Position numbers and translations under genes: made by a program. Below, piece by piece: positions 11,310-61,095 of a DNA stretch of 64,000 nt. Under the pieces are notes generated by a model. The model had not been told where the DNA came from. It saw nothing but the letters and a program-made list of their open reading frames with translations, and made no database searches. The DNA is from Candidatus Omnitrophota bacterium. Its GTDB lineage: Bacteria; Omnitrophota; Gorgyraeia; Pluralincolimonadales; Pluralincolimonadaceae. Where the stretch lies: assembly GCA_003141835.1 (NCBI GenBank), contig PLNR01000008.1, forward strand, positions 132,472 to 196,471. The letters run 5' to 3'. How positions within the stretch are numbered: the first letter of the stretch is position 1; each line of letters starts with the position of its first letter.

Positions 11310-14084
11310 TCAGAACTTTACTTCAAGTTCCTTCGTGTCAGCGGGGATCGCGGTTTTATTCTTTCCGAGGACCAGTGTATAACCCCCCGGAGGCGGCGTC
11401 GCGCAATCGATGGACAATTTGACCGAACCATTGGCGCGGGAACTCTCGACCCTGAAAGATACCTTGCCGAAATACGTGGGGGCGTTCTTTATCTCTATGA
11501 CTTTGCCGTCATCGAGCCACGAGTCCGGGATGCAGGACAAAAGCACCAGCTTGTCGCCGTCCTCGCGTAAAAGCATATCTCGCAATAACAGGATATAATG
11601 CGCGGCCGACCAGCCGTGCGGGACGTCGCCTACTATCCCTTCGGTGATCTCCCTCAATCCTTTCGAGTTGACCTTGGTCGGCATCGCCTCCATCCATCCG
11701 CCGGGACAGGATTGGTGCTCTATGCCCCACTCGATGCTCTTGAGCGCGATGTCTTCCATCCCAAGGTATATCAAGGGATGCGCGAGCTTGAAATTATAAC
11801 CCCAGAAGAGCTGTTCGTACTCGACGAACCACCCGCCGTCATATCCCGAGAACTTCCCGGCATTCTTCCAATATTGCTCGTATGAAGTCTTGAACAGCTC
11901 CGTCGGTACCGGGATGCCCATATTCTCTCCCGGGAATAATGCCGGCCTGTGAGCCCACGCCATCTGGGTATCTCCCAGTATGCGGTGGTCCATGTCCTTT
12001 ATGCGCATCTCTTTGGGCCAGTAATCGGCGAACCCGGGCATGAACGACAGCCCGTTCTTCTTCATCGATTTTTCGATGCTCGCGATAGTGGCGGAATGGA
12101 GGCTTTCATATTCGGCCTTCATCCATTTGGCGTCATCGGCTTTTCCGAGTATCTGCGCCGACTCATAAGCCGCCTTCAGGCCGATCATCGCCCACCAGTC
12201 ATCGACGTAAAGGTAAGCGGGTATCTTGAAATTATCCTGGCTTACCCCTTTTGGGAGCAGTCCGTAAGCCACGTCTTCCTTCGGAAGCGACATCTGCGGG
12301 GCGCGGAGCTTCCTGATGAGCTCGCATGCCGATCTCATCCTCGGATATACGGCCTCCAGGTATTTAACGTCCTTTGTCAGCCGGTAATGCTCATAAAGCC
12401 CGAATATGCTGCCGCCTAGCTCGTCGACGTAGCCGCCGCCTTCCTTGTAATTGAAATGATCGGTCGAGGCGAGCGCTTCTTCGGTGAGCCCTGCCTTGTC
12501 GAGCGCGTTATCCATGTCTACCGCGTCATGAAGGTATAATGAGGTATATTCATACGGCCCGGGGAAAAGTTTATGCTCTTCGTCCATTATCAGGATGTAA
12601 TAGAGCGATGAATAAAAACAATCACTGTACCGTTTATCCGGGATGTTCATTACGAGCGGGATGCGGCCTTTCCAGTATTTGAGCGTCAGTTCGAGGGCCT
12701 TATCGAACCCCAGGTCCTTGATATCGTTAAATGACAACTCCGCTCCTGTGCCTGATGGTACGACGAAATCGAGCGACTCGGTCCCGCCGGCAGGTATCAT
12801 TTTTTTGTAAGAGAGCGAATCCTTCAGGTCTTTGCCGAGAGGGCCTTCCGCCCTTTCATCGAGGAAGAGCCGCGGCGCGCCGTTTATCTTTACGGTATGG
12901 TCGGCGTCGTATTCGATCGTCTTCATATCCGTAACTTTCCATTTGGGATATAGCGGGTTGGGGCGTATTACCGCCATGATCGCCACTTCCTTGTCCTGCG
13001 CGCTTGTATTCTTGACAGATTCCCTTGCGAAGGTCAGCACTTTTCCGAGTTTTTCATCGAGCCAGGAGAATATCTTCGTCTCGCCTTCAATGCCGTCGCC
13101 CTTCCACGATACGACCGTTATCGGGTATCCGCCATCGACCAATCTCCAATCGGTATGGAGAGTTTCCGGCGTATAGAGCCGGCCGTTATCATTTACCCAG
13201 AAACTGACCCTGAACGGGTAAGGATAGACGGCAAAAGAACCGTCCTTTCCTATGAAAGTCTTGAATTTGGAACCCTCCCAGCCGGAGAGCCCGCGGGCCT
13301 TGTCCAGGCCCTTGTGTTTGGCGATATCGTCCCAGTCCTTGAATTCGATCTTCTTCATCACACTTTCCTTCCCTTTGTTGTCTTCACAGTTGATCTTAAT
13401 GTGGCGTTTCCCGAATATGTTAGCATATATCCTGTCCTGTCCGCCAGCGCAAACCTCTTTATTATAGACTGTCTTCCAGGCCTTATCTTCGGCCTCGGTC
13501 TCTACGCGGTACGATACGGGATGGTCCTCTCCCCACGTTATAAATAAAGCGCCGATGTTCCTGTCCTTCTTGAGCTCGATCGAGATCGTGGTCCTGCCGT
13601 TATCGCTCGAGGTCTTTATCGGTATCTCGTCATCGAGCCCTTTGATCCTGATCTCCCAGATCGAATATCCCCACGCCGTGCCGCGTTCTTTAAAGTCCAG
13701 TTTTATGAATCGCGCTTTCTTCCTCCCGAAATATACGTCATCGACTACGCCTTCGCCATCGGACGTGGAATAGGCGTCCTCCCAATTTTTCCCGTCTTCC
13801 GATATGAGGACGTCATAGGATCTCGCGTATGCGGCCTCCCAGTTTATGATCAGGCCGACGAGGTCTTCGCTCTTACCGAGGTCTATCTGGAGCCATTGCC
13901 TGTCGGAGAAGGTGCTTGACCAGCGCGTTTGGGAATTATTATCGAAGGCGTTAGAAGGGCTTACCGAGTCATTCTCGCGGGATGACGCGGTGACCGTCGC
14001 GGCGTTTACGCCCGGGGATATTACCGCAAGCGAGGCCGCCAGGATGATAAGAGATGCTATGGATAAAAATGGCAGTTTTTTCAC
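11310..14084 (-). CDS. secreted protein with N-terminal F5/8 type C (discoidin/CBM32-like) domains and a C-terminal (alpha/alpha)6-barrel glycoside-hydrolase-like domain
   Basis: 924 aa with signal peptide [28 protein letters not shown], then [26 protein letters not shown]...[10 protein letters not shown] (F5/8 type C) and a second degenerate copy. It is a paralogue of the 55890-59123 protein. Confidence 0.6.
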
Positions 14085-15652: not shown

Positions 15653-18304
15653 CTAGCTCTCTAATCGTTTTAAGTTCTCCCTTAATTTTTCCAAAGATAC
15701 CTTTGCCTCGGAGAGCTTCTCTTTCTCCTTGTCGATAATATCTTTCGGCGCCCTCTCAGCGAAATTCTTGTTGTTCAACTTCGCTTCGATGGATTTAACA
15801 TACTTCTCGAGCTCGCCGGCTTTCGACATCATCTTCTTCTTTTCCGCCTCGATGTCAACAAGCCCCTCGAGCGGCACGCATATCTCGCAATCTCCGAATA
15901 CCGCGACTGAAGAGGCCTTCGGCCGTTTCAATTTATCCGTGACCTCGAGCGACTCAAGCCTCCCGAGGTTCTTTATATAATCGAGTGATTTGTCGATGGT
16001 GGTCCTTTTCTTTTCGCTATCGACCACCACTATCGCCTTACATGTCTTCTGCGGAGGGATGTTCACCTCGGCGCGGATATTCCTGATGGCGGTTATTATG
16101 CCTATCGCGAGGTCCATCTCTTCTTCCACTTTTTTATCTATAAGGTCTTTCTGCAAGTGCGGCCATGGCTGGATCATTATCGAGTCCCTCTTGTGCGGCA
16201 GGATGCTCCATATCTCCTCGGTAAGGAACGGCATGATCGGATGCAGCAGCCTCAGGCTCTTCTCCAACACCTTATATAGGATCACCTGTGTATTCTTTTC
16301 TTTTATACGGCTCTTTGCTATCTCCAGATACCAGTCGCAATATTTATGCCAGATGAAGTCGTAGAGCAGGTTCGCAGCCTCGCTGAACCTGTACGATTCA
16401 AGGGCCTTCTCCAGGTCTTCCAGCGTCGAATAGAGGTTGCTGAGTATCCACCTGTCGGCGAGGGTCAGGTCCGCGGACTTGTATAAGACGCACAGGTCCG
16501 TGTCGACGTCTTCAGAGAGGTTTGTCATGACGAACCTCGACGCGTTCCATATCTTATTCGCGAAATTCCTTCCGACCTGGAATTTTTCCTTCGACAGGAA
16601 TACGTCCTGGCCTACCGCGGTGATCGAGATGATGCTGAACCTCAGCGCGTCGGTCCCGTACTCGTCTATTATTTCGATAGGGTCGATGATATTGCCGAGG
16701 GATTTGGACATCTTCGCGCCGGTCTCGTCGCGCACCGTGCCGTGGATGTAAATATCCCTGAACGGAGCATCGCCCATGAACTCGTATCCTGCCATTATCA
16801 TGCGCGCTACCCAGAAGAATATTATATCCTGGGCAGTTACCAGCGTAGATGTCGGATAGAAATACGCGAGGTCCTTTGTCTTGTCCGGCCAGCCGAACGT
16901 CGAGAACGGCCAGAGCCATGAAGAGAACCAGGTATCGAGGACGTCCTCGTCCTGGACGATATCAGTCCCGCCGCAATCCGGGCATTTCTGCGGTTTCGAG
17001 CGCGCTACTATTATCCCTTTCTTCCCCTCGGTCGCTTTCTCGCACTTCCTGCAATAATAGACGGGTATCCTGTGGCCCCACCATATCTGCCTCGAGATGC
17101 ACCAGTCGCGGATATTCTCCATCCAGTCGAGATATACCTTGCTCCAGCGTTCCGGGTAGAATTTTATCTTGCCGCTTTTGGCCGCCTCTATGCCGGGCTT
17201 TGCGAGTGGTTTCATCTTCACGAACCACTGTAATGAAAGGTAGGGTTCGACGACAGTGTGGCACCTGTAACAGTGCCCGACCGAATGCGCGTGCTGGTCG
17301 ATCTTCTCGAGCAGGCCCATCTCTTTCAGGTCCTCGATTATCGCCTCACGCGCCTCGAACCTGTCCATCCCCGCGTAATCCCCCGCATTCTTGCTCATAC
17401 TGCCGTCGGGGTCCATCACGACTATAGGCTCAAGGCTGTGGCGCCTGCCCATGTCAAAGTCGTTGGGGTCGTGTGCAGGGGTCACTTTGACCGCGCCTGT
17501 GCCGAATTCCGGGTCAACGATATCGTCGGCGATGACCTTGATCTCCCTGTTCATAAGCGGGAGTATTAAAATCTCGCCTACCAGGTTCTTATATCTTTCG
17601 TCCTTCGGATTAACTGCGACCGCGACGTCACCTAACATCGTCTCCGGGCGCGTCGTAGCCACTGTGACGTGCCTCTTCTCGCCTTTTACCGGGTATTTAA
17701 TGTAATAGAGCAGGCCGTTAAGGTCTTTGTGCTGTGCCTCTTCATCACTTAACGCCGTCTGGCACCTCGGGCACCAGTTGATTATATAATTGCCGCGGTA
17801 GATCAGGCCTTTCTCGTAAAGGCGGATGAAGACCTCGTTTACCGCGTCTGAAAGCCCCTCGTCCATCGTGAAACGCGTGCGGTCCCAGTCGCACGAACAG
17901 CCGAGCCTTTTAAGCTGCGAGATTATGGTCGTCCCGTACTGCTCGCGCCACTGCCAGACGCGTTCTATGAATTTTTCGCGGCCTAAGTCCTGCCTTTTCT
18001 TCCCCTCTTTGGCCAGCATCTTCTCGACCACATTTTGTGTGGCGATGCCTGCGTGGTCAGTCCCGGGAAGCCACTCGGCGTTCCAGCCCTGCATCCTCCG
18101 CCACCTTATGATGATATCCTGGATCGTGTCGTTGAGGGCATGGCCCATATGGAGGATGCCGGTAATATTAGGCGGCGGGATGACTATCGTATAGGGCTTG
18201 CGTTTCGGGTCAGGTTCGGCGTGGAAGAGTTTCTTGGATTCCCAGAGCTTATACCATTTGTCTTCCGTTGCCTTCGGGTTGTAAGCAGAAGGGATCTCTG
18301 GCAT
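15653..18304 (-). CDS. valS: valyl-tRNA synthetase
   Basis: Class I HIGH motif (PPPNITGILHMGHALN), KMSKS, and a C-terminal coiled coil. The start is assigned to the ATG at 18304 (MPEIPSAYNPKATEDKWYKLWE...). The ORF frame runs open 99 codons further upstream into cimA, but that extension is low-complexity. Confidence 0.93.
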   Translation of the reverse strand: MPEIPSAYNPKATEDKWYKLWESKKLFHAEPDPKRKPYTIVIPPPNITGILHMGHALNDTIQDIIIRWRRMQGWNAEWLPGTDHAGIATQNVVEKMLAKEGKKRQDLGREKFIERVWQWREQYGTTIISQLKRLGCSCDWDRTRFTMDEGLSDAVNEVFIRLYEKGLIYRGNYIINWCPRCQTALSDEEAQHKDLNGLLYYIKYPVKGEKRHVTVATTRPETMLGDVAVAVNPKDERYKNLVGEILILPLMNREIKVIADDIVDPEFGTGAVKVTPAHDPNDFDMGRRHSLEPIVVMDPDGSMSKNAGDYAGMDRFEAREAIIEDLKEMGLLEKIDQHAHSVGHCYRCHTVVEPYLSLQWFVKMKPLAKPGIEAAKSGKIKFYPERWSKVYLDWMENIRDWCISRQIWWGHRIPVYYCRKCEKATEGKKGIIVARSKPQKCPDCGGTDIVQDEDVLDTWFSSWLWPFSTFGWPDKTKDLAYFYPTSTLVTAQDIIFFWVARMIMAGYEFMGDAPFRDIYIHGTVRDETGAKMSKSLGNIIDPIEIIDEYGTDALRFSIISITAVGQDVFLSKEKFQVGRNFANKIWNASRFVMTNLSEDVDTDLCVLYKSADLTLADRWILSNLYSTLEDLEKALESYRFSEAANLLYDFIWHKYCDWYLEIAKSRIKEKNTQVILYKVLEKSLRLLHPIMPFLTEEIWSILPHKRDSIMIQPWPHLQKDLIDKKVEEEMDLAIGIITAIRNIRAEVNIPPQKTCKAIVVVDSEKKRTTIDKSLDYIKNLGRLESLEVTDKLKRPKASSVAVFGDCEICVPLEGLVDIEAEKKKMMSKAGELEKYVKSIEAKLNNKNFAERAPKDIIDKEKEKLSEAKVSLEKLRENLKRLES

Positions 18305-18305
18305 A

Positions 18306-19874
<1,569 letters not shown>

Positions 19875-19886
19875 ATTATCTGCCTC

Positions 19887-21113
19887 TTATTTTGCTTTTT
19901 TCAGGTCAAATTCGTCATGGAGCACTTTAAGCGCCAGTTCAGCGTGCTTCTTCCCTATGACGCAGGATATCTTTATCTCGGATGTGGATATCATCTCGAT
20001 GTTTATCTTCTTCGATGCCAGCGCCTTGAACATCCGCGCGGCGATACCGGCGTGGCTTCTCATTCCGATGCCGACTATCGATATCTTGGCGATATCCTCG
20101 TCCTTCACTACCTCGCCCGCGCCTATCTCTTTGGCGACCCTCTTGGCGACCTTCATTGTCTTGGCGAGGTCCTCGGTCAGGACGGTGAATGAAACATCGG
20201 TAGTCCCGGTGCGTCCTACGTTCTGGACGATCATGTCGATGACGATATTATTAATGCCCAATTCCTTGAATATGATGGCCGCGATGCCCGGCTTGTCAGG
20301 CACGTCGCAGATAGTTATCTTCGCTTCGTCTTTTTGCAGCGCTACACCGCTTACGTCGATTTTTTCCATCGATTTTGCCTCCTTGCAGATTATAGTCCCT
20401 TCGGCGTTCGAGAAACTCGAGCGGACATGTATGGGCATATCATAACGCTTGCCGTATTCCACCGACCTCGCCTGCATGACCTTCGCGCCCAGCGAGGCGA
20501 GTTCGAGCATTTCATCATAACTTATCTTAGAAAGTTTTTTTGCGTTCTTGACTATCCTCGGGTCGGCGGTATAGACCCCGTCTACGTCGGTATATATCTC
20601 GCATATCTTCGCGCCGAGCGCGCTCGCCAGGGCTACGGCGGTCAGGTCGCTTCCGCCTCGGCCGAGGGTGGTGATCTCTTTCTTTATGCTCATCCCCTGG
20701 AACCCGGCGACTACGACGACCCTGCCTTCCTTCAATTGTTCCTTTATCCTGTCAGCCGCCGATATGTTAAGTATGCGGGCCTTGGTGTGGATGTTATCGG
20801 TTATGATGCCGACCTGCGCGCCGGTAAAGGATATCGCGGGCGCGCCGAGCTTCTCGACTGCCATGGCCAGGAGGGCGCATGATATCTGCTCGCCGGTCGA
20901 GATGAGCATGTCCATCTCGCGTTCTGACGGGTCGTCGGTGACCTTATAGGCCAGTTCGATGAGCTCGTCGGTGGTGTCTCCGAGCGCCGATACAACGACC
21001 ACGACGTCATGGCCTTCTTTCTTGTAGCGCACGACGCGCTTGGCTACGTTTATGATCCTCTCGGGATTCGCAACGGAAGATCCGCCGTATTTTTGGACGA
21101 TTAGTGATCCCAC
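19887..21113 (-). CDS. lysC: aspartate kinase (monofunctional, with ACT domains)
   Basis: 408 aa: MGSLIVQKYGGSSV...VVVVSALGDTTDELI.... Confidence 0.92.
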   Translation of the reverse strand: MGSLIVQKYGGSSVANPERIINVAKRVVRYKKEGHDVVVVVSALGDTTDELIELAYKVTDDPSEREMDMLISTGEQISCALLAMAVEKLGAPAISFTGAQVGIITDNIHTKARILNISAADRIKEQLKEGRVVVVAGFQGMSIKKEITTLGRGGSDLTAVALASALGAKICEIYTDVDGVYTADPRIVKNAKKLSKISYDEMLELASLGAKVMQARSVEYGKRYDMPIHVRSSFSNAEGTIICKEAKSMEKIDVSGVALQKDEAKITICDVPDKPGIAAIIFKELGINNIVIDMIVQNVGRTGTTDVSFTVLTEDLAKTMKVAKRVAKEIGAGEVVKDEDIAKISIVGIGMRSHAGIAARMFKALASKKINIEMISTSEIKISCVIGKKHAELALKVLHDEFDLKKAK

Positions 21114-21134
21114 TTTTATTCTGCCTTCCTCCTT

Positions 21135-22334
21135 TTAGCTCTTAATGAAGTATTCCATAAGCTCGTGGCCGTGCCCGAAGGCAAGCCCGGTCGCCTTTGC
21201 CGACGCTTCGCTGTATTCCTGGGCCCCGTTAGGGGCGAAACCCTTGCCGAATACCGCGAACGGCACCGGTTCGGCAGTATGGGTCCGGAGCGATACAGGG
21301 GTATTATGGTCCGGCAGTACCATTACCCTGAAATCTTCTTGTTTCTTGAATTTATCGAGGATCGCTCCTACGATAAACCTGTCGAAATTCTCTATTGCTG
21401 CCATCTTCGCGCGCAGGTCTCCGTTGTGGCCGGCCTCATCAGGCGCCTCTACGTGCACGAAAACGAAATCCTTGTCCTTAAGTGAATCTATCGCGTATTT
21501 CGCCTTGCCCTGGTAATTGGTGTCGTAGTAGCCGGTCGCGCCCGGTACATTTATGACATCCAGCCCTATCAACTTGCCTATGCCTTTTATCAGGTCGACC
21601 GCAGAGATGACCGAGCCGGTGACGCCGAACTTGTCGCTGAACTTCGGCATGTTCGTCTCAACGCCCTGTCCCCATAGCCATATCATGTCGGCCGGGTTCT
21701 CTTTCAGGTCTATCCTCACATGGTTGACTTCGTGGCCCGAAAGTATTGCCCTCGAATCTTCCATTAGCTTTATAAGGAATTTCGCGCCGTCGCCCTTCGG
21801 CAAGTGGCCTTTTATCTCCATACCCGTTATGTCGTGCGGCGGCTCGCAATGGGTCTCGCGCAGCGCCTCTTTCAATGACCCGTCCCTGACTATAATCAGG
21901 TGCCTGTAGCTTACGCCCGGATAGAATTTTATCTTCTCCGAGCCGAGTTTTTTGTCGAGAAATTTTATCAAGGTAGCCGCTTCTTCGGAGGTTATATGCC
22001 CCGCCGAGTAATCGGCCATACGTTCCTTATCAATGGTAACAAGGTTGCACCGGAACGCGATGTCATCCGGCCCGAGCTTAATCCCCATGTTCGCGGCCTC
22101 GAGCGGCCCGCGGCCCGAATAATACTTCACCGGGTCATAACCGATTATCGAGAGGTTCGCGACATCGGAAGCCGGCGCTAAACCTTGCGGTATGGTATGG
22201 ACCAGGCCCGCCCTGCCGTTCTTGGCTATGAAATCCATGTTCGGGACTTTGGCGGCCTCGAGCGGCGTCTTGTTCCCGAGTTCCTTGATAGGATAATCCG
22301 CCATGCCGTCGCCGACCAGGACGATATATTTCAT
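21135..22334 (-). CDS. cofactor-independent phosphoglycerate mutase, archaeal-type (ApgM/COG3635 family), candidate non-orthologous homoserine kinase
   Basis: 399 aa: MKYIVLVGDGMADYP... alkaline-phosphatase-superfamily metal ligands. It lies between thrC and lysC exactly where thrB is expected, and no canonical GHMP-type thrB is present in the window. Confidence 0.75.
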   Translation of the reverse strand: MKYIVLVGDGMADYPIKELGNKTPLEAAKVPNMDFIAKNGRAGLVHTIPQGLAPASDVANLSIIGYDPVKYYSGRGPLEAANMGIKLGPDDIAFRCNLVTIDKERMADYSAGHITSEEAATLIKFLDKKLGSEKIKFYPGVSYRHLIIVRDGSLKEALRETHCEPPHDITGMEIKGHLPKGDGAKFLIKLMEDSRAILSGHEVNHVRIDLKENPADMIWLWGQGVETNMPKFSDKFGVTGSVISAVDLIKGIGKLIGLDVINVPGATGYYDTNYQGKAKYAIDSLKDKDFVFVHVEAPDEAGHNGDLRAKMAAIENFDRFIVGAILDKFKKQEDFRVMVLPDHNTPVSLRTHTAEPVPFAVFGKGFAPNGAQEYSEASAKATGLAFGHGHELMEYFIKS

Positions 22335-22337
22335 CTA

Positions 22338-23405
22338 TTATATGCCTATTGCCTTGAGGACCGACTTCATATCGGCCTTGACAGATTTTGGTTTACTTAA
22401 AGTCGAGATAGCCCTGTCCGGGTCTTTCAAGCCGTGGCCGGTCAGGATACATACGATCTTTATCTTTTTTGCCGGGTTCTTCTTGAAGAAACCCTTGCGC
22501 ATCATCTTCATGAGGCCGGCCACAGACGCGGCCGAAGCAGGCTCGGCGAATATGCCTTCTCTTAATGCAATATATTGGTAGGCATCAAGTATCTCTTTAT
22601 CCGAGACCATGTCTATGGTCCCGCCTGATTCATCGCGCGCAGCCTCGGCTTTCTCCCAGCTCGCCGGGTTGCCTATCCTTATCGCGGTCGCGATGGTCTC
22701 GGGATGCTCGACGATATGCCCCCTTACGATAGGCGCCGCGCCTTCGGCCTGGAAGCCCATCATCTTCGGGAGCGCTTTAATCTTCCCGTATTCCTTGAAT
22801 TCCTTATAGCCCTTCCAATACGCGGTGATATTCCCGGCGTTGCCGACAGGGATAAAATGGTAATCCGGCGCAGACTCGAGCGCCTCGCAGATCTCGAACG
22901 CCCCGGTCTTCTGCCCTTCGATCCTGTACGGGTTCAGGGAATTGACAAGGGTTATCGGATGTTTATCGGTTATCTCTTTTACGAGTTCCAAAGCCTCATC
23001 GAAATTCCCTTTAATGGCTAATACCTCGGCGCCGTAGATTATCGCCTGCGCCAATTTGCCTAGGGCAATTTTGCCCTCAGGGATAAGGACGATGCATTTG
23101 ATCCCTGCGCGAGCAGCATACGCGGCTGCAGAGGCAGAAGTATTACCGGTCGAGGCGCACATTATCGCTTTCGAGCCCTCTTCGACGGCCTTCGAGACGG
23201 CCATGGTCATGCCGCGGTCCTTGAACGAACCGGTCGGGTTAGACCCGTCGAACTTTAAATAGACTTCGTATCCTTTTCCGAGCTTATTGCTTAAATTGCA
23301 GGAATAGATAAGCGGGGTATTGCCCTCGTTAAGGGTGATTACCGGGGTCTTCGCAGAGACCGGAAGGTATTTCCTGTATTTGTCTATCAGTCCTCGCCAC
23401 ATCAT
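22338..23405 (-). CDS. thrC: threonine synthase
   Basis: 355 aa, PLP-fold: ...[15 protein letters not shown].... Confidence 0.93.
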
Positions 23406-23409
23406 TTTT

Positions 23410-24708
23410 TTATCTCTCGACCCTTATGGCGACGGTCTTGCGCCTTATGGCCGCCATCCTGTCTATCTCTTCAAGAGCCTGCCTCATGTTCTTCTCTTTC
23501 GCCTCGTGGGTCATCATGACGACCGGCACGATGCGCGCCGCGCGCCTTTCCTTCTGCCCGACGCTGGCTATCGATATCTTATTCCGGCCGAGGATGCCCG
23601 CGACCCTCGCGAGCACGCCGGGTTTGTCGATGCATGAGATGCGGATATAATAGCTCGCCTCGATATCGTCCATCTTCCTGATCTTCTTTATCGACTTGTC
23701 CTTCATATAGATCGGGACCCTGCCTACGGAATTGAACCGCAGGTTGCGCGCGAGGTCGATCACATCGCCGACAACAGAGCTTGCAGCCGGGTTCTGTCCG
23801 GCGCCGCGTCCGTAGAACAAAGTGCCGCCGACCATATCCCCGTGGACGTAGATGGCGTTATAGACCCCGTTTACGTTTGCGAGGAGATGTTCCTTCGATA
23901 AAAGGGTCGGATGGACCCTGACCTCTATCTCGTTATCGACTTTCTTGGCGATCGCGAGCAGTTTTATGGCGTAGCCGAATTCGTCGGCATACCTGATATC
24001 GTTCTGCGATATGTCGAGTATCCCCTCGACGTAAATATCCTTGAGTTTTACCGCTTTGCCGAAACCGAGAAGGGTAAGTATAGCGAGTTTGTGCGCGGAA
24101 TCATAACCCTCGATGTCGAGCGCCGGGTTGCGCTCGGCATAACCCTTCTTCTTCGCCTGTTCGAGGGCGTCGGAGAAACTCAACTCCTCTTCGGCCATGG
24201 CCGAGAGGATATAGTTCGAAGTGCCGTTGACTATGCCGAGTATAGTGTCGATCTCGTTAGCGACGAGCCCCTCGCGCAAAGACTTGATTATCGGGATGCC
24301 GCCGCCGACCGAGGCCTCGTAGAAGATGTCAACGCCGGCCTTCTTCGCCGCGTCGAATATCTCTTCGCCGTGTTCGGTAATAAGGGCTTTGTTGGCGGTT
24401 ACGACATGCTGGCCGCTCTTTATCGCTTTTAGGACAAACTCCTTGGCCGGATGGATCCCGCCGATGAGCTCCACTACGATATCGATGTCGGGATTGCCGA
24501 TGACCTTGTTGATGTCGCTGGTCAGTATCTTCCTATTGACCTTGATGTTCCTCTTGCGGCGCAGGTCATTATCGCAGATGGCCTTAAGCACGACTCGCGC
24601 CCCGACCTGACGCTCTATCCGGGCGGATTTCTGTAATAACGCCTTCGCGACGCCGACGCCTACGGTCCCGAACCCTATCAAACCTACATTGATCTTCTCC
24701 ATTCTCAT
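23410..24708 (-). CDS. hom: homoserine dehydrogenase
   Basis: 432 aa: [20 protein letters not shown]... with a C-terminal ACT domain. An extended -10 TGATATAAT (24737..24729) lies upstream, about 10 nt after the tRNA 3' end. Confidence 0.93.
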
Positions 24709-24742: not shown

Positions 24743-24819
24743 TGGTCGGGGCGAGCGGACTTGAACCGCTGACCACTTGTACCCCATACAAGTGCTCTAC
24801 CAAACTGAGCCACGCCCCG
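24743..24819 (-). tRNA. tRNA-Pro (anticodon GGG), CCA encoded
   Basis: The 77-nt cloverleaf was folded manually. Acceptor 7 bp CGGGGCG/CGCCCCG, D-stem GCUC/GAGC, anticodon stem CUUGU/ACAAG with loop AUGGGGU (G37), T-stem AGCGG/CCGCU, TPsiC-like loop UUCAAGU, discriminator A and CCA. An extended -10 TGATATAAT (24851..24843) lies about 25 nt upstream. Confidence 0.85.
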
Positions 24820-24889
24820 GTTTATTCGGATTTAGGAAATAAATTATATCAGATTTTTGGGAAGGTGTATAGAGGGAAATTACGAAGCT

Positions 24890-27676: not shown

Positions 27677-29467
27677 TTAGAGTTTAAGTACCGCCATAAA
27701 GGCTTCCTGCGGTATCTCGACTTTCCCGAACTGCTTCATGCGTTTCTTGCCTTCTTTTTGTTTCTCCCAGAGCTTGCGTTTCCTCGTAATGTCGCCGCCG
27801 TAGCACTTCGCGGTGACGTTCTTGCCGACAGGCCTGACCGTCTCCCTGGCGATTATCTTGCTCCCTATCGCGGCCTGGAGCGCTACCTCGAACAACTGCC
27901 TCGGGATAAGCTCCTTCAATTTAGTGACGAGCTGGTTGCCCTTCGTATGCGCGTTCTCCTTATGGATGATGAACGAGAGCGCGTCGCAGGGCTTGCCGTT
28001 TATGAGTATGTCAAGTTTTACGAGGTCGCTGGGCTTATATTCTTTGAACTCGTAGTCGAGCGAGCCGTAGCCCCTCGTCATGGACTTTATTTTATCATAA
28101 AAATCCACAATAATCTCGGATAATGGGAATTCATAGACCAGCATCGCCCTTGTCGGATCAAGGTATTCGGTCGATATATAGGTCCCCCTTCTCTCCTGGC
28201 ATAACTGCATCACGTTGCCGAGTGAATCCGACGGCGAGATGACGAACGCCCTTATGAACGGCTCCTCGATCTCATCGATCTCCTGCGGCGCCGGGAGCTT
28301 GCTCGGGTTCTCTATCTCGACTGTCTCGCCGTCGGTCTTTATGACTTTATATACCACGCTCGGAGTGGTCGCGATGAGGTTCAGGTTATATTCCCTTTCG
28401 AGCCGCTCCTGTATGATCTCCATGTGAAGCAGTCCGAGAAAACCGCAGCGGAAACCGAACCCGAAAGAAACTGAGGACTCGACTTCATATATGAAGGAAG
28501 CGTCGCTCAGTTCCATCTTTTCGAGCGCGTCCCTGAGGAACGGGAAATCCTTTGCGTTTACCGGGTAGAGGCCGCAGAAGACGAGCGGCCGTACTTTCTT
28601 ATATCCGGGTAGCGCGTCGGCAGCCGGCCTCCTGAAATCAGTCACCGTGTCTCCGACGTGGACCTCTTTTGGTACCTTGATATTACAGGTGATGTAGCCG
28701 ACCTCTCCGACCGAGAGTTCATCGACAGCGACAGGCGCAGGCTTGAATACGCCTACCTCTTCTATATCGTAGACGCGGCCGGTGCCCATCATCTTGATCT
28801 TCATTCCCTTCCTGATCGACCCGTTCTTGAGCCTTATGTAGACGACGACACCCTTGAACGTATCGAACGCCGAGTCGATTATAAGCGCCTGCAGCGGATT
28901 TACTGTTTCGCCTTTCGGGGCCGGTATTTTGTCGACGATCGCCTGTATTATCTCGTCCACGCCTATCCCGGACTTGGCGCTGGCCATTATCGGCTCTATC
29001 TCAGTCAAATGGAGCGTATCCCTGAGCTGCTGGACCACCCTATCCGGTTCGGCGCTCGGCAGGTCTATCTTGTTTATTACGGGGATGATGACGAGGTTGT
29101 GTTCCCGCGCCAGATAAAGGTTGGCGACTGTCTGGGCCTCGACGCCCTGCGCCGCGTCTACGACGAGAAGCACGCCCTCGCATGCGGCAAGCGCTTTTGA
29201 GACTTCGTAGGTGAAATCGACATGGCCGGGCGTATCGATGAGGTTGAGGATGTAATCCTTCCCCCCGGCTGAATGGTTTAATCTCACGGCTTTGGCCTTG
29301 ATCGTGATGCCGCGCTCCCTCTCGAGGTCCATGCCGTCGAGCATCTGGTCGTGGAACTCCCTCTGGGAGATAGCGCCGGTCTTCAAGAGCAGCCTGTCGG
29401 CTAAGGTCGATTTCCCGTGGTCTATATGGGCGATGATGCAGAAATTACGGATTAACGACTTATCCAT
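27677..29467 (-). CDS. lepA: elongation factor 4 (LepA)
   Basis: 596 aa: [20 protein letters not shown]... GTPase domains and the LepA C-terminal domain. Confidence 0.96.
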
Positions 29468-30909
29468 TATTTGATCGTCTTAGACATCCTGTCGACTATA
29501 GCGATGAGGTCCCTGGCTTCCTTGTCGGTATGAGCCTCGCTGTATACCCTGAGTATAGGCTCGGTGCCCGAAGGCCTTATCAGGAGCCAACTCTCGTCGT
29601 CGAATATGAATTTCAGGCCGTCGTAGGTCTTTATGTCGACGACCTTGCGTTTGAATATCTTTCCGGAGCCCTTACCCTGCAATTTAGCGAAAAGGCTTTT
29701 AACTACCTTTTCTCTCGTCTTTAAGGGGATCTCGACATCCTGCCTGTGGTACCTGAATTTGCCGAACTTCTTTTCCATATCATCGATGAGGACGAGGATG
29801 GGCTTCTTCTCCTGCTGCATCATCTCGACCAGTAAGAGCCCGGTCAATATACCGTCCCTTTCCGGAATGTAATTCTTTACGCCTATGCCGCCTGATTCCT
29901 CGCCGCCGACCAGTACGTTCTCGCGCTGCATCAGTTTCGCGATATGCTTGAAACCGACAGGCGTCTCGAAGAATTTCAGGTTATAATGTTTGGCTATCTT
30001 GTTCATGAGCATCGGGCCCGCGATATTCTTGACGAGCGCGCCTCTCCAGCGCCTGTTCTCGATGAAATGGAGGGCGATGAGGCACATTATCTCCCCGGGC
30101 GTGATGAACCTTCCTCCGGGGGCGACCGCGCCGACCCTGTCAGCGTCGCCGTCTGTCGCCAAGCCTATGTCATATTTGCCTTTTTTCATTATTGCCATTA
30201 ATTTCGGCATGTTATGCGGGAGCGGCTCAGGCTTCAATCCCTCGAATGTGGGGTTCGGCTCGGCATTGATTGTGTCTATCTTTACCTTCGTGCCTTTTAA
30301 TACGGCCGCGTGGTAGCTGTTCCCGGCGCCGTGCATCGCCTCAGCCACGACTTTGAGGTCACAGTTTTTCAAAAGGTCGAGGTCCAGGTATTTGCGGACC
30401 GCGTCGAGATATTTCGGCATCGGGTCTATCACTTCGATCTTCTTTGTCCTGACGGCTTCCTCGAGGGATAAAGTCTTTACCTTGTTCTTATAAAGGAACG
30501 CCTCTACTTTATGGGTAACGGTCTGGTCAGCAGGCGAACCGAACTGAGTCTTTATCTTGAGCCCGCTGAACCTTCCCGGGTTATGGCTCGCGGTGATGAT
30601 GAGCCCGCCGTTCAACCCAAGCAACCTTATGTTGTAGCTTGTAGTCGGGGTCGGCGATGGTTTATCCGAGAGATATACCTTTAAACCATTGGCCGCCAAA
30701 ACTTCGGCGACGGCCTGGGCGAATTTATCGGATATAAAACGGGTGTCGTAACCTATTATTATGCGGCGCGGAGCCTTGAATTCATTGTTGAAATAATCGG
30801 CGCATGCCTGCGCGACTATCCGCACATTCTCGAACGTGAAATCTTCGGCTATCAGGCCTCTCCAGCCGTCGGTACCGAATTTGATCTGTGGTCCCTCCGC
30901 CTTTTTCAT
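29467..30909 (-). CDS. phosphoglucomutase/phosphomannomutase family protein
   Basis: 480 aa: FGTDGWRG..., active-site [13 protein letters not shown], and a metal-binding DGDADR loop. Confidence 0.85.
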
Positions 30910-55889: not shown

Positions 55890-58800
55890 TTATTCCTTCT
55901 TCGCTGTCATCTCCTCTAGCTTGAGGCCTTTGAATTCTTTAGGCAGGACGAACTTTACCCCTTTGGGGGGTTTGGCGGTGCCGTAGATGAAATACTTAAT
56001 GGTATCGCCTTCTTTCTTTATCACGTAGCAGATCTTGCCGTATGGCGTAGGCAGGTCCTTGACCTCGATGCCCTGGTCAAACCATTCCGGGGCTAAACCT
56101 TCGCCGAGGATAAGCTTTCCGTTATCATCATAGACGAACATCGTCCTGACCGCGTCGATATAACCCGACCCGACCCATGTATGCGGCATATCGCCGATAT
56201 ACGACGGCGTGCGCGGCTTGGCGTATACGACCTCTGCCATATGGTTCCAGCCGTATGGTCTTACGGAATCTTTCGTAAAGTATCTTAACATAGCAAGGCC
56301 GCGCTCGCGCTCATCCATCCTGAAATAAGCGTTCGCCGAGCGGACCTCGTAAGGGGTGAAAGTCCTCTCGTGCCCGGGCTCCATGCCTTTGCTGAAATCG
56401 GCAAAATACCTGTCGAAAGTGTTCTTCAGCAGGTCCTTCGGCATATATTCCAGTTCTCCGGCCGCTACTATGGCGATGGCAGTCGAGGTCGAGTCAAAAT
56501 CACCCTTCTCTACGCATCCGGCGATATAATTAATCTTGTCGCGTTCTGCCACTTTCTTTATCGAATCATACAGGCACTTGCGGAAATCGTCAACTTCCTT
56601 CTGCATCCATTCCGCGCTTGCCGTATCTCCCATTATATTGGCGAGATAGACCCCGTCCTTGAAACCTTTCAGCGCGAAGAAGTCATCCCAGTAGCTCGTC
56701 TGCGCCGGGTAATATCCCTCGTGGCTGTTAGACTTGGGAAGTATCCCGTAATACGGCTGTTTCTTCGGGTCGGTCTTGAAATCGTTGCCCATGGTGCGGC
56801 GGCGGAGGCCGCGGGTGAATTCCAGGACTTTCACGACCTTCGGATATACCGTCGGCAGATATGCCTTGTCGCCGGAATAATCGACGTAGTTCCTGACCGC
56901 AAAGACATATTCGCCCTGCGCGTCCCATTCTACGCCTTCGCCGGAACCGTTATCGTTATTGCCTACGGCATTGCCCCCCTCGAAAATTATATACGGGACA
57001 AATCCGTTATCCGCGACTTTTGAGGAGAACGCGTCAAGCCATTCCTTTACCGGCTCAACGACGCCCACCTTCAGGAGCGCCGCGCTCGTCAAACAACCGT
57101 CGCGCATCCACGAATGGCTGTAATTGCGCGAGCCGGGTTTTATCCATGGCCCGTCCTTATTGATGAGGATGTATGCGATGTTGGTCTTCATGACATCGAT
57201 AAGGCGTTTTTCGGGAATATTGATCGTGAAACGGTTCTCATACCCGGCCCACATCGCCGCCTGCTTCGCAAGCTCGGTATCAAAATCCGCGATCGTCTCT
57301 CCGGCCGGGAATTGGATTATAAAATCCTTCGTTTCGCCGGGACCGGCTTTGAGCTCATAAGTAAGCCCCGCGGATGCCGTTCCCTCGCCGCTTTGCGCTA
57401 TCGCGGAATCAGGCAGTCCGCCTTTCTCCATGAAATCGATTATATCTCCTGAAGAGTATGGTACAGCGGCCATTTTCACGCCGGCTGTACCGGTGGATAA
57501 TTTGGCCTGGCCGTTTATCAGCAGTTTCGGCGGCGCGCATTCTACCTTATTTATCGGGCTGAAGCCTCCGTACTGCCATGTGGGATTCACCTGGACCGGC
57601 CTCACCGCGAGGTCGAACAACCCGTCGAACGGCTTGGTGCCGGTATTCTTGAACCTGTACCTGACTTCCATCGTAGACCCGCCTGGCGCTATCGCCGTAA
57701 TTTCCAGCGACCAATCGGAATGGTCCCATTTTACCGTCGGTATAGGCAGGTAATCCTCAAGAAGGCTCTGCGTGACTTTGCAGTCGTTAGCCGTGTAAAG
57801 TTTTTTTCCGTCATAGACGAAAGGCATGACAGAAAAAGCCCCTTTGTACGGCTCGAACGTGCCGGTCTCGCTTAACAGGCCCTCATCGTTAGAATCCGGC
57901 GCGCCGATGACTGTCCAGAACTCCTGTACCCTGCCAAGCCACATCGGGTAATAGCCCGGCGGGGATAGTTTCGCGAGCATCTGGTAGATCTTTATAGGCG
58001 TAGCCTGCTCTTCACCGCTCTTCGGCTCAAAACTTTTTAAAACGTATTCCTTCCCCGTCGCGGATGCAGGGCAGTTAACCCTGAATTCCCTGACAGGACC
58101 GGCCTTGAAATAGATCCAGTTATCTTTTGACGCATTCTTGTCAGTCTTGAATACTTCATTCCAGGCCTGCCCGTCAGCCGAGGCCTCAACGGTAAAGGAC
58201 TTGGGATAGTTCTCGCCCCATCTAAGGACGATACCGCCGAGGTTCATCTTCGCGGGTAATTTTATATCGGTCTGAGCGCCGTTCCTGGCCACTACCGGCG
58301 GTTTATCACCGTCGAGGAAATTCACTTCCCACAGGGAATTGCCCCAGCCTGTGCCGCGCTGGATGCAATTTATCTTGAGCGCGGTCGCCACAACCGGGTC
58401 AAAATAGATTATATCGGTATTGCCGTCGCCCTCGGCGGTCTCGTAGACCTTCTTCCAGTTGCCCGAGGCGTCCTTTACTTCTATATTATATATCTCGGTA
58501 AAAGCGTTCTCCCATTTAAGGATGACACCGCAAATGTTGTGGGGGGTGTCAAACTCTGCCTGCCACCACTGGTTGTCCTCGAATTTACTCGACCAGCGCG
58601 TCGCCATATTCCCGTCTATTGCCTTATCCGCGCTGTAATCGGTGTCGCCGGATGAGGCGGTCGCCTTAGCCTTTATCGGGTCCGGGGCGTTAAGCTCAAC
58701 CTCAAACAGTGAGAATCCCCATTTGGTCGCGCGCTTTATAAGCTCTAGCTTTACGTAACGGGCTTTGACCGGGGTGATCTTTATGGTCTCGGTCCCGCCG

Positions 58801-59123
58801 GAGGAGTTCTTCTTTTCATATACTTTTTTCCATGAGGCCTTGTCGTTGGAGATGAGGATATTATATTCGGAGGCATAGGCCGCTTCCCAGGTAAGCGTTA
58901 TCTTCTTTATCTCGGTCGGTTGGCCGAGATCAATGATCAACCATTGGTTATCTTCGAACTTGCTGGACCAGCGGGTAGACGGGTCGCCGTCTATGGCGGA
59001 CTGGGGATCTAAATTCTCTCCGCTTGAAGAAGCGGACGCTTTCCATTCCGCGGCTTGGGTGAACTGGCTGAAACAGGCAAATACCGTAAAAACAAGCATA
59101 AAACCGAGCTTTTTACCGCACAT
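55890..59123 (-). CDS. secreted protein with two N-terminal F5/8 type C (discoidin/CBM32-like) domains, a beta-sandwich and a C-terminal (alpha/alpha)6 glycoside-hydrolase-like domain
   Basis: Start assigned to the ATG at 59123, with a perfect GGAGG 4-5 nt upstream: MCGKKLGFMLVFTVFACFSQFTQA (signal peptide). Two repeats of ...TRWSSKFEDNQW...WG.SL.EV... follow. The ORF frame stays open 24 codons further upstream. Confidence 0.6.
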   Translation of the reverse strand: MCGKKLGFMLVFTVFACFSQFTQAAEWKASASSSGENLDPQSAIDGDPSTRWSSKFEDNQWLIIDLGQPTEIKKITLTWEAAYASEYNILISNDKASWKKVYEKKNSSGGTETIKITPVKARYVKLELIKRATKWGFSLFEVELNAPDPIKAKATASSGDTDYSADKAIDGNMATRWSSKFEDNQWWQAEFDTPHNICGVILKWENAFTEIYNIEVKDASGNWKKVYETAEGDGNTDIIYFDPVVATALKINCIQRGTGWGNSLWEVNFLDGDKPPVVARNGAQTDIKLPAKMNLGGIVLRWGENYPKSFTVEASADGQAWNEVFKTDKNASKDNWIYFKAGPVREFRVNCPASATGKEYVLKSFEPKSGEEQATPIKIYQMLAKLSPPGYYPMWLGRVQEFWTVIGAPDSNDEGLLSETGTFEPYKGAFSVMPFVYDGKKLYTANDCKVTQSLLEDYLPIPTVKWDHSDWSLEITAIAPGGSTMEVRYRFKNTGTKPFDGLFDLAVRPVQVNPTWQYGGFSPINKVECAPPKLLINGQAKLSTGTAGVKMAAVPYSSGDIIDFMEKGGLPDSAIAQSGEGTASAGLTYELKAGPGETKDFIIQFPAGETIADFDTELAKQAAMWAGYENRFTINIPEKRLIDVMKTNIAYILINKDGPWIKPGSRNYSHSWMRDGCLTSAALLKVGVVEPVKEWLDAFSSKVADNGFVPYIIFEGGNAVGNNDNGSGEGVEWDAQGEYVFAVRNYVDYSGDKAYLPTVYPKVVKVLEFTRGLRRRTMGNDFKTDPKKQPYYGILPKSNSHEGYYPAQTSYWDDFFALKGFKDGVYLANIMGDTASAEWMQKEVDDFRKCLYDSIKKVAERDKINYIAGCVEKGDFDSTSTAIAIVAAGELEYMPKDLLKNTFDRYFADFSKGMEPGHERTFTPYEVRSANAYFRMDERERGLAMLRYFTKDSVRPYGWNHMAEVVYAKPRTPSYIGDMPHTWVGSGYIDAVRTMFVYDDNGKLILGEGLAPEWFDQGIEVKDLPTPYGKICYVIKKEGDTIKYFIYGTAKPPKGVKFVLPKEFKGLKLEEMTAKKE

Positions 59124-59280
59124 CTTTCCTCCTAAGTTGTATCCCCCTTGAATGTTATACAATAATACCTGAACATATCTCCAAATGCAAGCCATTTTGT
59201 GTTATCATTACCCTATGGCAAGAATATTCCACGGGCTCCCCCCTTTTGATGACGGTTTCTTGGAAAAACGGGAGTGTTTC

Positions 59281-61095
59281 ATGCTCTTCGAGACGAGCCT
59301 GTTTGACGGCGAAAATTCGAATAGTTATATCCTCCTCGACCCGGTCGATACCATAAAGATATACAAATTCAGCGATGTCAGGAGCGCTTTCGAGCGCATA
59401 GAGCGGTATTCCAAGACGCATTTCCTGGCCGGATACTTCTCGTATGAACTGGGATATTGTTTCGAAGGGCCGTCTTTCAAAACAAAAGGCTCTTTTCCTC
59501 ATCCCTTGATCAATCTGCGCGTATTCAAAAATATAACGTCATTCAACCATGTCACGGGACGGCTGTCCCGTTCCATTCCCGGGCTTTTCGCCGTCGATGC
59601 GAAAGAGAACGATTTTCACGTCGATGACCCCAAGTTCAGCCTTACGAGGCCCGCCTATTTCCGGAAGGTCTCCCGGATAAAAAAACATATAGCGGATGGC
59701 GACACCTACCAGGTCAACTTTACCGGGAAATATACTTTCGGCTTCTCGGGCAGCGCCTTTTCTTTTTACCGCGGTCTTAAGGAAAAACAGAGCGTCCCGT
59801 ACGGCGCATTCTGCAAGATGGGCGGCGAACAGGTCCTCTCGCTCTCCCCCGAGCTCTTCTTCAGGAGGGGCGGCCGCGCCATCTATTCCAGGCCGATGAA
59901 AGGGACGATCGACAGGGGCGCAACTATCAACGAGGACGCCGGCAGGACATCGCAGCTGAAACGTGATGCCAAGGAGATCGCCGGGAATTTAATGATCGTA
60001 GACCTGATACGAAACGACCTCGGGAAGATATCAAAGACCGGAAGCGTCAAAGTCTCTTCGCTCTTCGACGTGGAAAAATACAATACCCTCTTCCAGATGA
60101 CCTCAACAGTAAAAAGCGCCTTAAAAGACGGCGTGACATATTTTGACATATTCAGGAGCCTCTTCCCCGGAGGGTCGGTCACCGGCGCACCCAAGATAAG
60201 GACGATGCAGATAATAAAGGAGCTCGAAAAAGACGACAGGAAGGTATATTGCGGCGCGCTCGGGATCATCTTTCCGGGCAAAAAGGCGGTCTTCAACCTT
60301 CCGATAAGGACGATATCGATATCGCGCGGCAAGGGCGAGATGGGGGTCGGCGGAGGGATAACAGTCGATTCTGACCCTGAGGAGGAATACCGGGAATGTG
60401 CCCTAAAGGCAAGGTTCCTCATTGAAAGGCGCAGGCCTTTCTCGCTCATCGAGACGATGTTATGGGACGGTAGATTCATGCGGCTCGGCAAGCATCTCGG
60501 CAGGATGCGCGACTCAGCGGAATATTTCGGTTTTGTCTTCGACCGCGCAAAGATATCCAAAAAACTGAAAAACGCCCAAAAAAGCTTTAAAAGAGATCTT
60601 TCATACAGGGTGCGTCTCTTGCTGGCCAGGGACGGCTCTGCCACCGTCGAGACCGCTGAGATCATACCGAGCCCGGAGAATGCCTTGGCACATGCCACAG
60701 TATCAAAATTCAGGACCTCTCCCGGCGACATCTTCCTCTATCACAAGACGACGAACAGGGAGCTATATGGCAGCGAATACGAACGCTACCGGACAAAAGG
60801 ATATTTTGACGTCATATTCCTTAACACAAAAGGCGAAGTGGCAGAGGGCGCCATAACTAACATAGTGATAAAGAAAAACGGGAGGTTTTACACGCCCCCT
60901 CTCTCTTCGGGCCTTCTGCCCGGCGTATTCAGGGCCCGCCTCTTAAAAAGCGGCCGCGTAAAAGAAAAGAAAATATTTTTAAAGGACCTCCGGAAGGCGG
61001 ACAAGATATTCCTCTGCAATTCGGTCCGCGGGCTCGTTGAAGTCAAATTGACTTCTCCTCGCCCATCCCCTATAATAGACGATAATGAAAGCTGA
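59281..61095 (+). CDS. pabB: aminodeoxychorismate synthase component I fused to an aminodeoxychorismate lyase-like (class IV aminotransferase fold) domain
   Basis: Chorismate-binding core (...NLMIVDLIRNDLGKI...GGSVTGAPKIRTMQIIKELE...) plus a C-terminal ~250-aa PabC/DAAT-like domain (...IETMLWDG...). Start ambiguous between 59185, 59215 and 59281 (chosen: GGGAG SD 9 nt upstream). Confidence 0.8.
   Translation: MLFETSLFDGENSNSYILLDPVDTIKIYKFSDVRSAFERIERYSKTHFLAGYFSYELGYCFEGPSFKTKGSFPHPLINLRVFKNITSFNHVTGRLSRSIPGLFAVDAKENDFHVDDPKFSLTRPAYFRKVSRIKKHIADGDTYQVNFTGKYTFGFSGSAFSFYRGLKEKQSVPYGAFCKMGGEQVLSLSPELFFRRGGRAIYSRPMKGTIDRGATINEDAGRTSQLKRDAKEIAGNLMIVDLIRNDLGKISKTGSVKVSSLFDVEKYNTLFQMTSTVKSALKDGVTYFDIFRSLFPGGSVTGAPKIRTMQIIKELEKDDRKVYCGALGIIFPGKKAVFNLPIRTISISRGKGEMGVGGGITVDSDPEEEYRECALKARFLIERRRPFSLIETMLWDGRFMRLGKHLGRMRDSAEYFGFVFDRAKISKKLKNAQKSFKRDLSYRVRLLLARDGSATVETAEIIPSPENALAHATVSKFRTSPGDIFLYHKTTNRELYGSEYERYRTKGYFDVIFLNTKGEVAEGAITNIVIKKNGRFYTPPLSSGLLPGVFRARLLKSGRVKEKKIFLKDLRKADKIFLCNSVRGLVEVKLTSPRPSPIIDDNES

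Follow-up and report, generated by a model that had tools for sequence, protein, structure and literature searches.

The 64-kb stretch of Candidatus Omnitrophota DNA analyzed here (the window; positions 132,472 to 196,471 of contig PLNR01000008.1) carries a threonine gene cluster, hom-thrC-homK-lysC, in which a gene for a 399-residue relative of the archaeal cofactor-independent phosphoglycerate mutase (PGM) ApgM stands between thrC and lysC. We conclude that this gene is very probably an orthologue of HomK (TIGR02535, also named ThrB2), which replaces the GHMP kinase ThrB and would act by phosphotransfer through a phosphorylated Ser56. The HomK family and its replacement of ThrB are already described and curated, and the Omnitrophota case is an ordinary one. 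The original prediction, made from the letters of this stretch, had named hom, thrC, the 399-residue gene, and lysC as a co-directional cluster, and our check of the open reading frames (ORFs) together with family scans found all four on the minus strand where it had placed them. The cluster runs further than had been proposed, into cimA and then valS. Its genes are as follows.

24708..23410, minus strand: hom, homoserine dehydrogenase with a C-terminal ACT domain, 432 residues (NF004976, 539.8 bits, cut-off 205; Pfam NAD_binding_3, Homoserine_dh, and ACT)
23405..22338, minus strand: thrC, threonine synthase, 355 residues (TIGR00260, 345.4 bits, cut-off 167.1; PF00291)
22334..21135, minus strand: homK (TIGR02535/ThrB2), ApgM-like, 399 residues (PF10143 PhosphMutase and PF01676 Metalloenzyme)
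21113..19887, minus strand: lysC, monofunctional aspartate kinase with two ACT domains, 408 residues (NF005155, 607.7 bits, cut-off 346; AA_kinase and ACT)
19874..18306, minus strand: cimA, citramalate synthase (TIGR00977, 775.7 bits, cut-off 450)

Because ThrC consumes O-phosphohomoserine, an enzyme that phosphorylates homoserine is needed. Homoserine, the product of Hom, is the substrate of HomK; LysC carries out the entry reaction of the aspartate family pathway, and CimA provides a threonine-independent route to isoleucine. The gaps between hom and thrC, thrC and homK, and homK and lysC measure 4, 3, and 21 nucleotides, respectively, followed by 12 nucleotides between lysC and cimA; lysC begins with GTG and has AAGGAGG ahead of its start.

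The homology of the 399-residue protein to ApgM, as the original prediction had it, is real. At the superfamily level the protein matches PF10143 (204 bits) and PF01676 (169.5 bits) and passes TIGR00306, and its closest solved structure is the ApgM of Pyrococcus horikoshii (PDB 2zkt; E = 3.8e-65 over residues 3-394). The models that divide this superfamily place the protein on the HomK side. We compared its scores with those of BT2402 from Bacteroides thetaiotaomicron, a validated HomK, and of 2zkt, a true ApgM, against the curated cut-off of each model.

TIGR02535, 'proposed homoserine kinase' (cut-off 446.3 bits): window protein 569.7, BT2402 603.9, 2zkt 323.7
NF003242, 'cofactor-independent phosphoglycerate mutase' (cut-off 426 bits): window protein 590.6, BT2402 581.2, 2zkt 324.4
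TIGR00306, apgM subfamily (cut-off 320 bits): window protein 550.6, BT2402 508.9, 2zkt 466.6
NF003104, archaeal mutase equivalog (cut-off 489 bits): window protein 339.6, BT2402 329.3, 2zkt 592.6

The window protein passes TIGR02535 and fails NF003104, and its profile of scores resembles that of BT2402, whereas 2zkt has the reverse profile. That a non-orthologous homoserine kinase had been proposed within this family, which the original prediction put forward as a point to verify, proved accurate (TIGR02535 at 569.7 bits; ThrB2, PMC9026213; HomK, 10.1101/2024.10.14.618325). All relatives in the range of 60-92% identity belong to metagenome-assembled genomes (MAGs) of Candidatus Omnitrophota and are labeled "cofactor-independent phosphoglycerate mutase." NF003242 is designated an "equivalog" under that same name, and it accepts BT2402 and rejects the true ApgM 2zkt. 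What this model captures is the HomK clade, but its name is that of a mutase, and it is the likely source of the misannotation by the Prokaryotic Genome Annotation Pipeline (PGAP) in Omnitrophota; HomK genes are publicly misnamed because NF003242 recognizes their clade under that name.

The family has been approached experimentally in other phyla. Curators of TIGRFAMs put it forward as a replacement for ThrB that uses a donor such as phosphoenolpyruvate (PEP), and BT2402 is needed for growth of B. thetaiotaomicron unless threonine is supplied (PMC7311316). Ashniev et al. gave it the name ThrB2 and found that thrB and thrB2 occur in a complementary fashion and that thrB2 is colocalized with thrC and hom (PMC9026213). 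A GapMind 2026 preprint reported rescue of an Escherichia coli thrB::kan strain by BT2402 and by the diverged DET_RS08350, named the family HomK, and proposed Glu299 of BT2402 as the specificity determinant, a position at which true mutases have Lys (10.1101/2024.10.14.618325). The homoserine kinase hypothesis did not originate in the 2004 Methylococcus genome paper, and the main Omnitrophota genomics paper contains no discussion of the homK gene.

To align the window protein with BT2402, we took as the latter the 407-residue ORF that lies between the two published PCR primers on four contigs from human gut metagenomes; the numbering of this ORF matches the published D9, S56, E299, and D346/H347. 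The two proteins are 45% identical over 388 residues (E = 9e-123). D9 and S56 carry identical numbers in both, E299 of BT2402 (LHIEASDEAGH) corresponds to E296 of the window protein (VHVEAPDEAGH), and D302/H306, D346/H347, and H356 correspond to D299/H303, D342/H343, and H352, respectively. The two proteins therefore share membership in TIGR02535, D9, S56, the Glu specificity residue, and the DxxGH and DH motifs, and both genes lie beside thrC and a homoserine dehydrogenase gene. They differ in arrangement and in phylum: the order in B. thetaiotaomicron is thrA(fusion)-homK-thrC, whereas here, in Omnitrophota, it is hom-thrC-homK-lysC-cimA with hom and lysC as separate genes. The second-metal ligands given in the preprint for BT2402 (D274, H278, and H325) are N, E, and V in the primer-bounded ORF; by homology the ligands would be D302, H306, and H356, and the discrepancy is probably a numbering slip. 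For DET_RS08350 of Dehalococcoides mccartyi the comparison covers the approximately 125 N-terminal residues that can be read from the gBlock in the preprint, and within these the HomK-specific residues C96, S110, and H113 and the catalytic Ser are common to both proteins. TIGRFAMs place DET_RS08350 in TIGR00306 rather than TIGR02535 (10.1101/2024.10.14.618325), whereas the window protein is a mainstream member of TIGR02535.

The distinction between the two clades extends beyond the single published residue. We compared 144 diverse representatives of the HomK side, which share 39-61% of their residues with the window protein, with 120 archaeal ApgM sequences from Thermococcales and Thermoplasmata. 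Kept in both groups are D9, S56, D299, H303, D342, H343, H352, R75, R95, R144, R207, K277, and K310. Six other columns separate the groups, and the window protein and BT2402 agree with the HomK side at all six.

Column 110: ApgM R in 120/120; HomK side S in 94, T in 28, A in 8; window S110
Column 113: ApgM R in 120/120; HomK side H in 67, E in 25, N in 13, G in 12; window H113
Column 143: ApgM H in 120/120; HomK side Y in 130/144; window Y143
Column 221: ApgM R in 120/120; HomK side W in 141/144; window W221
Column 296: ApgM K in 120/120; HomK side E in 125/144; window E296
Column 300: ApgM V, A, I, or L; HomK side E in 132/144; window E300

ApgM (PF1959/PH0037, 2zkt; the Thermoplasma acidophilum structures 3kd8 and 3idd; NF003104) shares with the window protein its fold, the PF01676 and PF10143 domains, the nucleophile, and all seven residues of the metal site, but it has R, R, R, K, and H in place of S110, H113, W221, E296, and Y143 and lacks E300, and it passes NF003104 and fails TIGR02535, the opposite of the window protein. 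Among close homologues, E296 is present in 120/120, and D9, S56, D299, H303, D342, H343, and H352 are invariant. From what is known of the family, the signature residues would line the substrate pocket. The loss of four invariant cationic residues together with the gain of two Glu is in keeping with a change of substrate from a tri-anion to an amino acid. D306 was also considered as a clade-specific residue; it held against two PDB sequences and was lost when the 120 ApgM sequences were used.

Two subsets of the HomK side depart from the common form. About 12 of the 144 representatives (e.g., P0263, P0297, P0317, P0344, P0357, P0372, and P0382) do not have several of the metal ligands and/or the catalytic Ser, and nearly all of them retain W221; they may be pseudoenzymes or sequencing artifacts. 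A branch of 974-1123-residue proteins (P0252, P0256, P0272, P0274, P0281, P0287, P0319, and P0384) has an N-terminal HomK-like domain with all catalytic and HomK-specific residues intact. Downstream of that domain come a linker rich in Lys, Glu, and Asp, a single transmembrane helix that would anchor the protein in the membrane, and a 550-650-residue beta-rich region. The C-terminal parts of these long proteins are homologous to one another (blastp E of 1e-8 to 1e-83); their beta-rich region has no Pfam match and offers no 'Rosetta stone' link to function.

A ThrB that could do the same work was sought in the window. We assigned every ORF of at least 150 residues to a family and searched all six frames for motifs. 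No GHMP kinase/ThrB, GpmA, or GpmI is among the assigned ORFs, the GHMP motif II and the RHGE motif of cofactor-dependent PGM are absent from all six frames of the window, and the 399-residue protein itself has no GHMP family match; the original prediction's statement that the window holds no GHMP-type thrB is borne out. The only other "mutase" in the window is the following.

29467-30909: phosphogluco/phosphomannomutase

The window otherwise consists of housekeeping genes and near-complete trp and his operons, which indicates that the organism makes its own amino acids.

The genomic setting recurs throughout the phylum. In a genome-collection scan, whose matches were all from Omnitrophota, the order hom-thrC-homK-lysC-cimA was found across 80 Omnitrophota species-representative genomes with no contrary case. 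The co-directional series gpsA-hom-thrC-homK-lysC-cimA has all six genes in 34 of the 80 loci, and the rest end at contig ends and show no different order; cimA follows lysC in 66/80, and most of the others end before cimA. As a control, we inspected three archaeal ApgM genes of the K type, and these have no threonine-pathway neighbors. The arrangement hom-thrC-homK-lysC-cimA is far from chance. One Omnitrophota MAG has two thrC-homK-lysC copies on separate contigs (L018, JBDRLN010000079.1; L037, JBDRLN010000064.1), which probably reflect strain redundancy in the bin and not a true duplication.

Several points weigh against assigning the window gene to HomK or against the evidence from its neighborhood. 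Nearly the whole window consists of tightly packed minus-strand genes, to the extent that valS, which is unrelated, starts 1 nucleotide after cimA. Since packing is dense across the whole window, close spacing by itself counts for little in this genome. Apart from the close relatives of the window, most Omnitrophota (loci L006-L081) have unrelated genes wedged into the thrC/homK/lysC block. Between thrC and homK these are a CoaB-like protein of about 210 residues (PF04127) and/or a set of LemA and TPM-domain genes, and between homK and lysC a 529-residue CstA-family transporter in about 19 loci; the compact form of the block is shared by the window's lineage and loci L002-L005. Because packing is dense everywhere and most Omnitrophota carry unrelated inserts, the block is better described as conserved synteny than as an operon in the strict functional sense. 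The search for thrB and for other PGMs was confined to the 64-kb window, a small part of the genome. The experimental support comes from orthologues outside Omnitrophota that are at most 45% identical to the window protein, and it consists of a threonine requirement and thrB rescue, not of work on purified enzyme. The rescue of thrB::kan was weak, with a gain in optical density at 600 nm (OD600) of 0.14-0.25 in 47 h (10.1101/2024.10.14.618325), and an earlier attempt at complementation with BT2402 failed (PMC7311316). The original prediction had taken tight co-directional packing as support for a role in threonine biosynthesis; packing by itself is too weak for this, and it is the order conserved across 80 Omnitrophota species that lends support. 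Adjacency carries less weight than the residue signature and the orthology to enzymes that have been validated.

We considered whether the gene could be a genuine glycolytic cofactor-independent PGM that merely lies inside an old syntenic block beside threonine genes. Its top NCBIfam score is to NF003242 (590.6 bits), it passes the cut-off of the apgM subfamily model TIGR00306, its relatives are named as mutases in NCBI and JGI, the window holds no other PGM, and unrelated genes share the block. However, the name of NF003242 is unfit, for the model accepts BT2402 (581 bits) and rejects real ApgM (324, below 426), and the protein fails NF003104 (339.6, below 489). It also has E for an invariant K and S, H, and W for three invariant Arg, and K-type ApgM genes at three loci are not near thr genes; we regard a glycolytic mutase as very unlikely. 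A bifunctional enzyme would make O-phosphohomoserine and retain residual 2-phosphoglycerate/3-phosphoglycerate mutase activity for glycolysis or gluconeogenesis in a small genome. The catalytic machinery is fully kept, no other PGM is present in the 64-kb window, and Omnitrophota genomes are reduced yet reported to encode glycolysis. The window, however, is a small part of the genome, and D. mccartyi has a separate PGM beside its HomK (10.1101/2024.10.14.618325). With four invariant cationic residues of ApgM replaced and two Glu added, tight binding of a tri-anionic substrate is unlikely, and a dual role appears improbable.

A true ATP-dependent homoserine kinase, the activity for which the original prediction suggested an assay, would be in keeping with the functional replacement of ThrB and with the label EC 2.7.1.39 applied to the family (PMC9026213). 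The 399-residue protein, however, has only the Metalloenzyme and PhosphMutase domains in Pfam and no nucleotide-binding domain, which makes an ATP-dependent kinase reaction unlikely. The chemistry of the family proceeds via a phospho-serine formed from a phospho-ester substrate, as in cofactor-independent PGM (iPGM) and ApgM, and the authors of the preprint predict a donor other than ATP (10.1101/2024.10.14.618325); we give this possibility little credence. Another hydroxy-amino acid might be the substrate, for example in the formation of L-threonine O-3-phosphate for cobalamin, as speculated for Glu-bearing homologues adjacent to cobD, and the Glu would select for an amino group and not for homoserine specifically (10.1101/2024.10.14.618325). 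But neither the window nor the 80 loci have cobD or another cobalamin gene nearby, the neighbors being hom and thrC, and the cobD-linked homologues favor TIGR00306 over TIGR02535 (10.1101/2024.10.14.618325), whereas the window protein favors TIGR02535. We consider a substrate other than homoserine extremely unlikely.

For HomK, homology to ApgM/iPGM suggests the following reaction. A phosphorylated donor would bind at a two-metal center whose ligands are D9, S56, D342, and H343 on the one hand and D299, H303, and H352 on the other. The phosphate of the donor would pass to Ser56, and the dephosphorylated donor would leave. L-Homoserine would then bind, and Glu296, probably together with Glu300, would hold its amino group; contact of the corresponding Glu with the amino group of homoserine is seen in a Boltz-2 model (10.1101/2024.10.14.618325). 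Finally, the phosphate of phospho-Ser56 would be transferred to the gamma-hydroxyl of homoserine, giving O-phosphohomoserine for ThrC. The overall reaction would be a ping-pong phosphotransfer and not an ATP-dependent kinase reaction. ThrB (GHMP; EC 2.7.1.39) carries out the same pathway step with the same product from the same thr-operon position in other bacteria (PMC9026213), but its fold is unrelated to that of HomK and it depends on ATP.

Among candidates for the phosphate donor of HomK, we rank phosphoserine above PEP, and PEP above 2- or 3-phosphoglycerate. The switch in charge at the signature columns independently makes a phosphoglycerate donor less likely and does not separate phosphoserine from PEP. 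The genes inserted into the block (CoaB-like, LemA/TPM, CstA, and a small PilZ protein) offer no clue, with no serA, serC, serB, or glycerate kinase among them. There is a precedent in ThrH of Pseudomonas aeruginosa, a member of the HAD superfamily. ThrH is a phosphoserine:homoserine phosphotransferase that uses a donor other than ATP and a phospho-enzyme intermediate; it is not homologous to HomK, for which phosphoserine is a hypothesized donor (10.1101/2024.10.14.618325). The authors of the preprint likewise expect a donor other than ATP; they disfavor phosphoglycerate, as no co-occurrence of HomK with glycerate kinases is seen, and they speculate on phosphoserine (10.1101/2024.10.14.618325). 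A further reading, less likely than not, makes HomK a phosphoserine:homoserine phosphotransferase independent of ATP, in effect an intermolecular 'mutase' with one pocket that takes up two amino acid phosphoesters in turn. If this is true, HomK would couple serine and threonine biosynthesis and save one ATP per threonine, and S, H, W, and E in place of Arg, Arg, Arg, and Lys, together with E300, would constitute the structural basis by which phosphoglycerate is excluded and a zwitterionic donor accepted.

Given that HomK biology is already described, the value of these results is mainly practical. The name of NF003242 passes into genome annotation pipelines; metabolic reconstructions, in Omnitrophota and in any phylum with HomK, may therefore credit glycolysis with a protein that is probably no mutase, and by the same misnaming they may report threonine biosynthesis as incomplete. 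The published single specificity residue is here extended to clade-specific changes of charge at columns 110, 113, 221, 296, and 300.

Three further features adjoin the cluster.

24871..24843, before the tRNA-Pro: promoter-like site TATACA-17-TATAAT with an upstream TG (extended -10), a consensus match only
24819..24743, minus strand: tRNA-Pro(GGG), directly upstream of hom, between gpsA and hom (Rfam RF00005, 62 bits; ARAGORN)
15653-18601, minus strand: valS ORF as called mechanically, with a 99-codon 5' extension overlapping cimA

The tRNA-Pro(GGG) lies between gpsA and hom in 11/11 Omnitrophota loci checked and is therefore part of a very old syntenic block. It may be co-transcribed with the hom cluster; a second TATAAT stands after it, just before hom. 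No riboswitch, T-box, or leader RNA was found upstream of the cluster, where the only RNA match is the tRNA. At the other end of the cluster, the true start of valS is most likely the ATG at 18304 (MPEIPSAYNP...), 1 nucleotide after the cimA stop.

Elsewhere in the window, the trp operon is split, with trpE-G-D-C-F (45691-41239, minus strand) apart from trpB-A (35683-33696, minus strand); between the two parts lie four unrelated genes, for a PilZ protein, HtpX, a DinG/YoaA-like helicase, and a CHASE2-SpoIIE phosphatase. Two large minus-strand genes encode proteins with F5/8 type C (discoidin) domains and no family match over the rest of their length: a 924-residue protein (11310-14084) with one such domain at its N terminus and a 1101-residue protein (55890-59195) with three such stretches. 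Among the few plus-strand genes is one for a 636-residue fusion (59185-61095) of chorismate-binding and class IV aminotransferase domains that resembles PabB-PabC.

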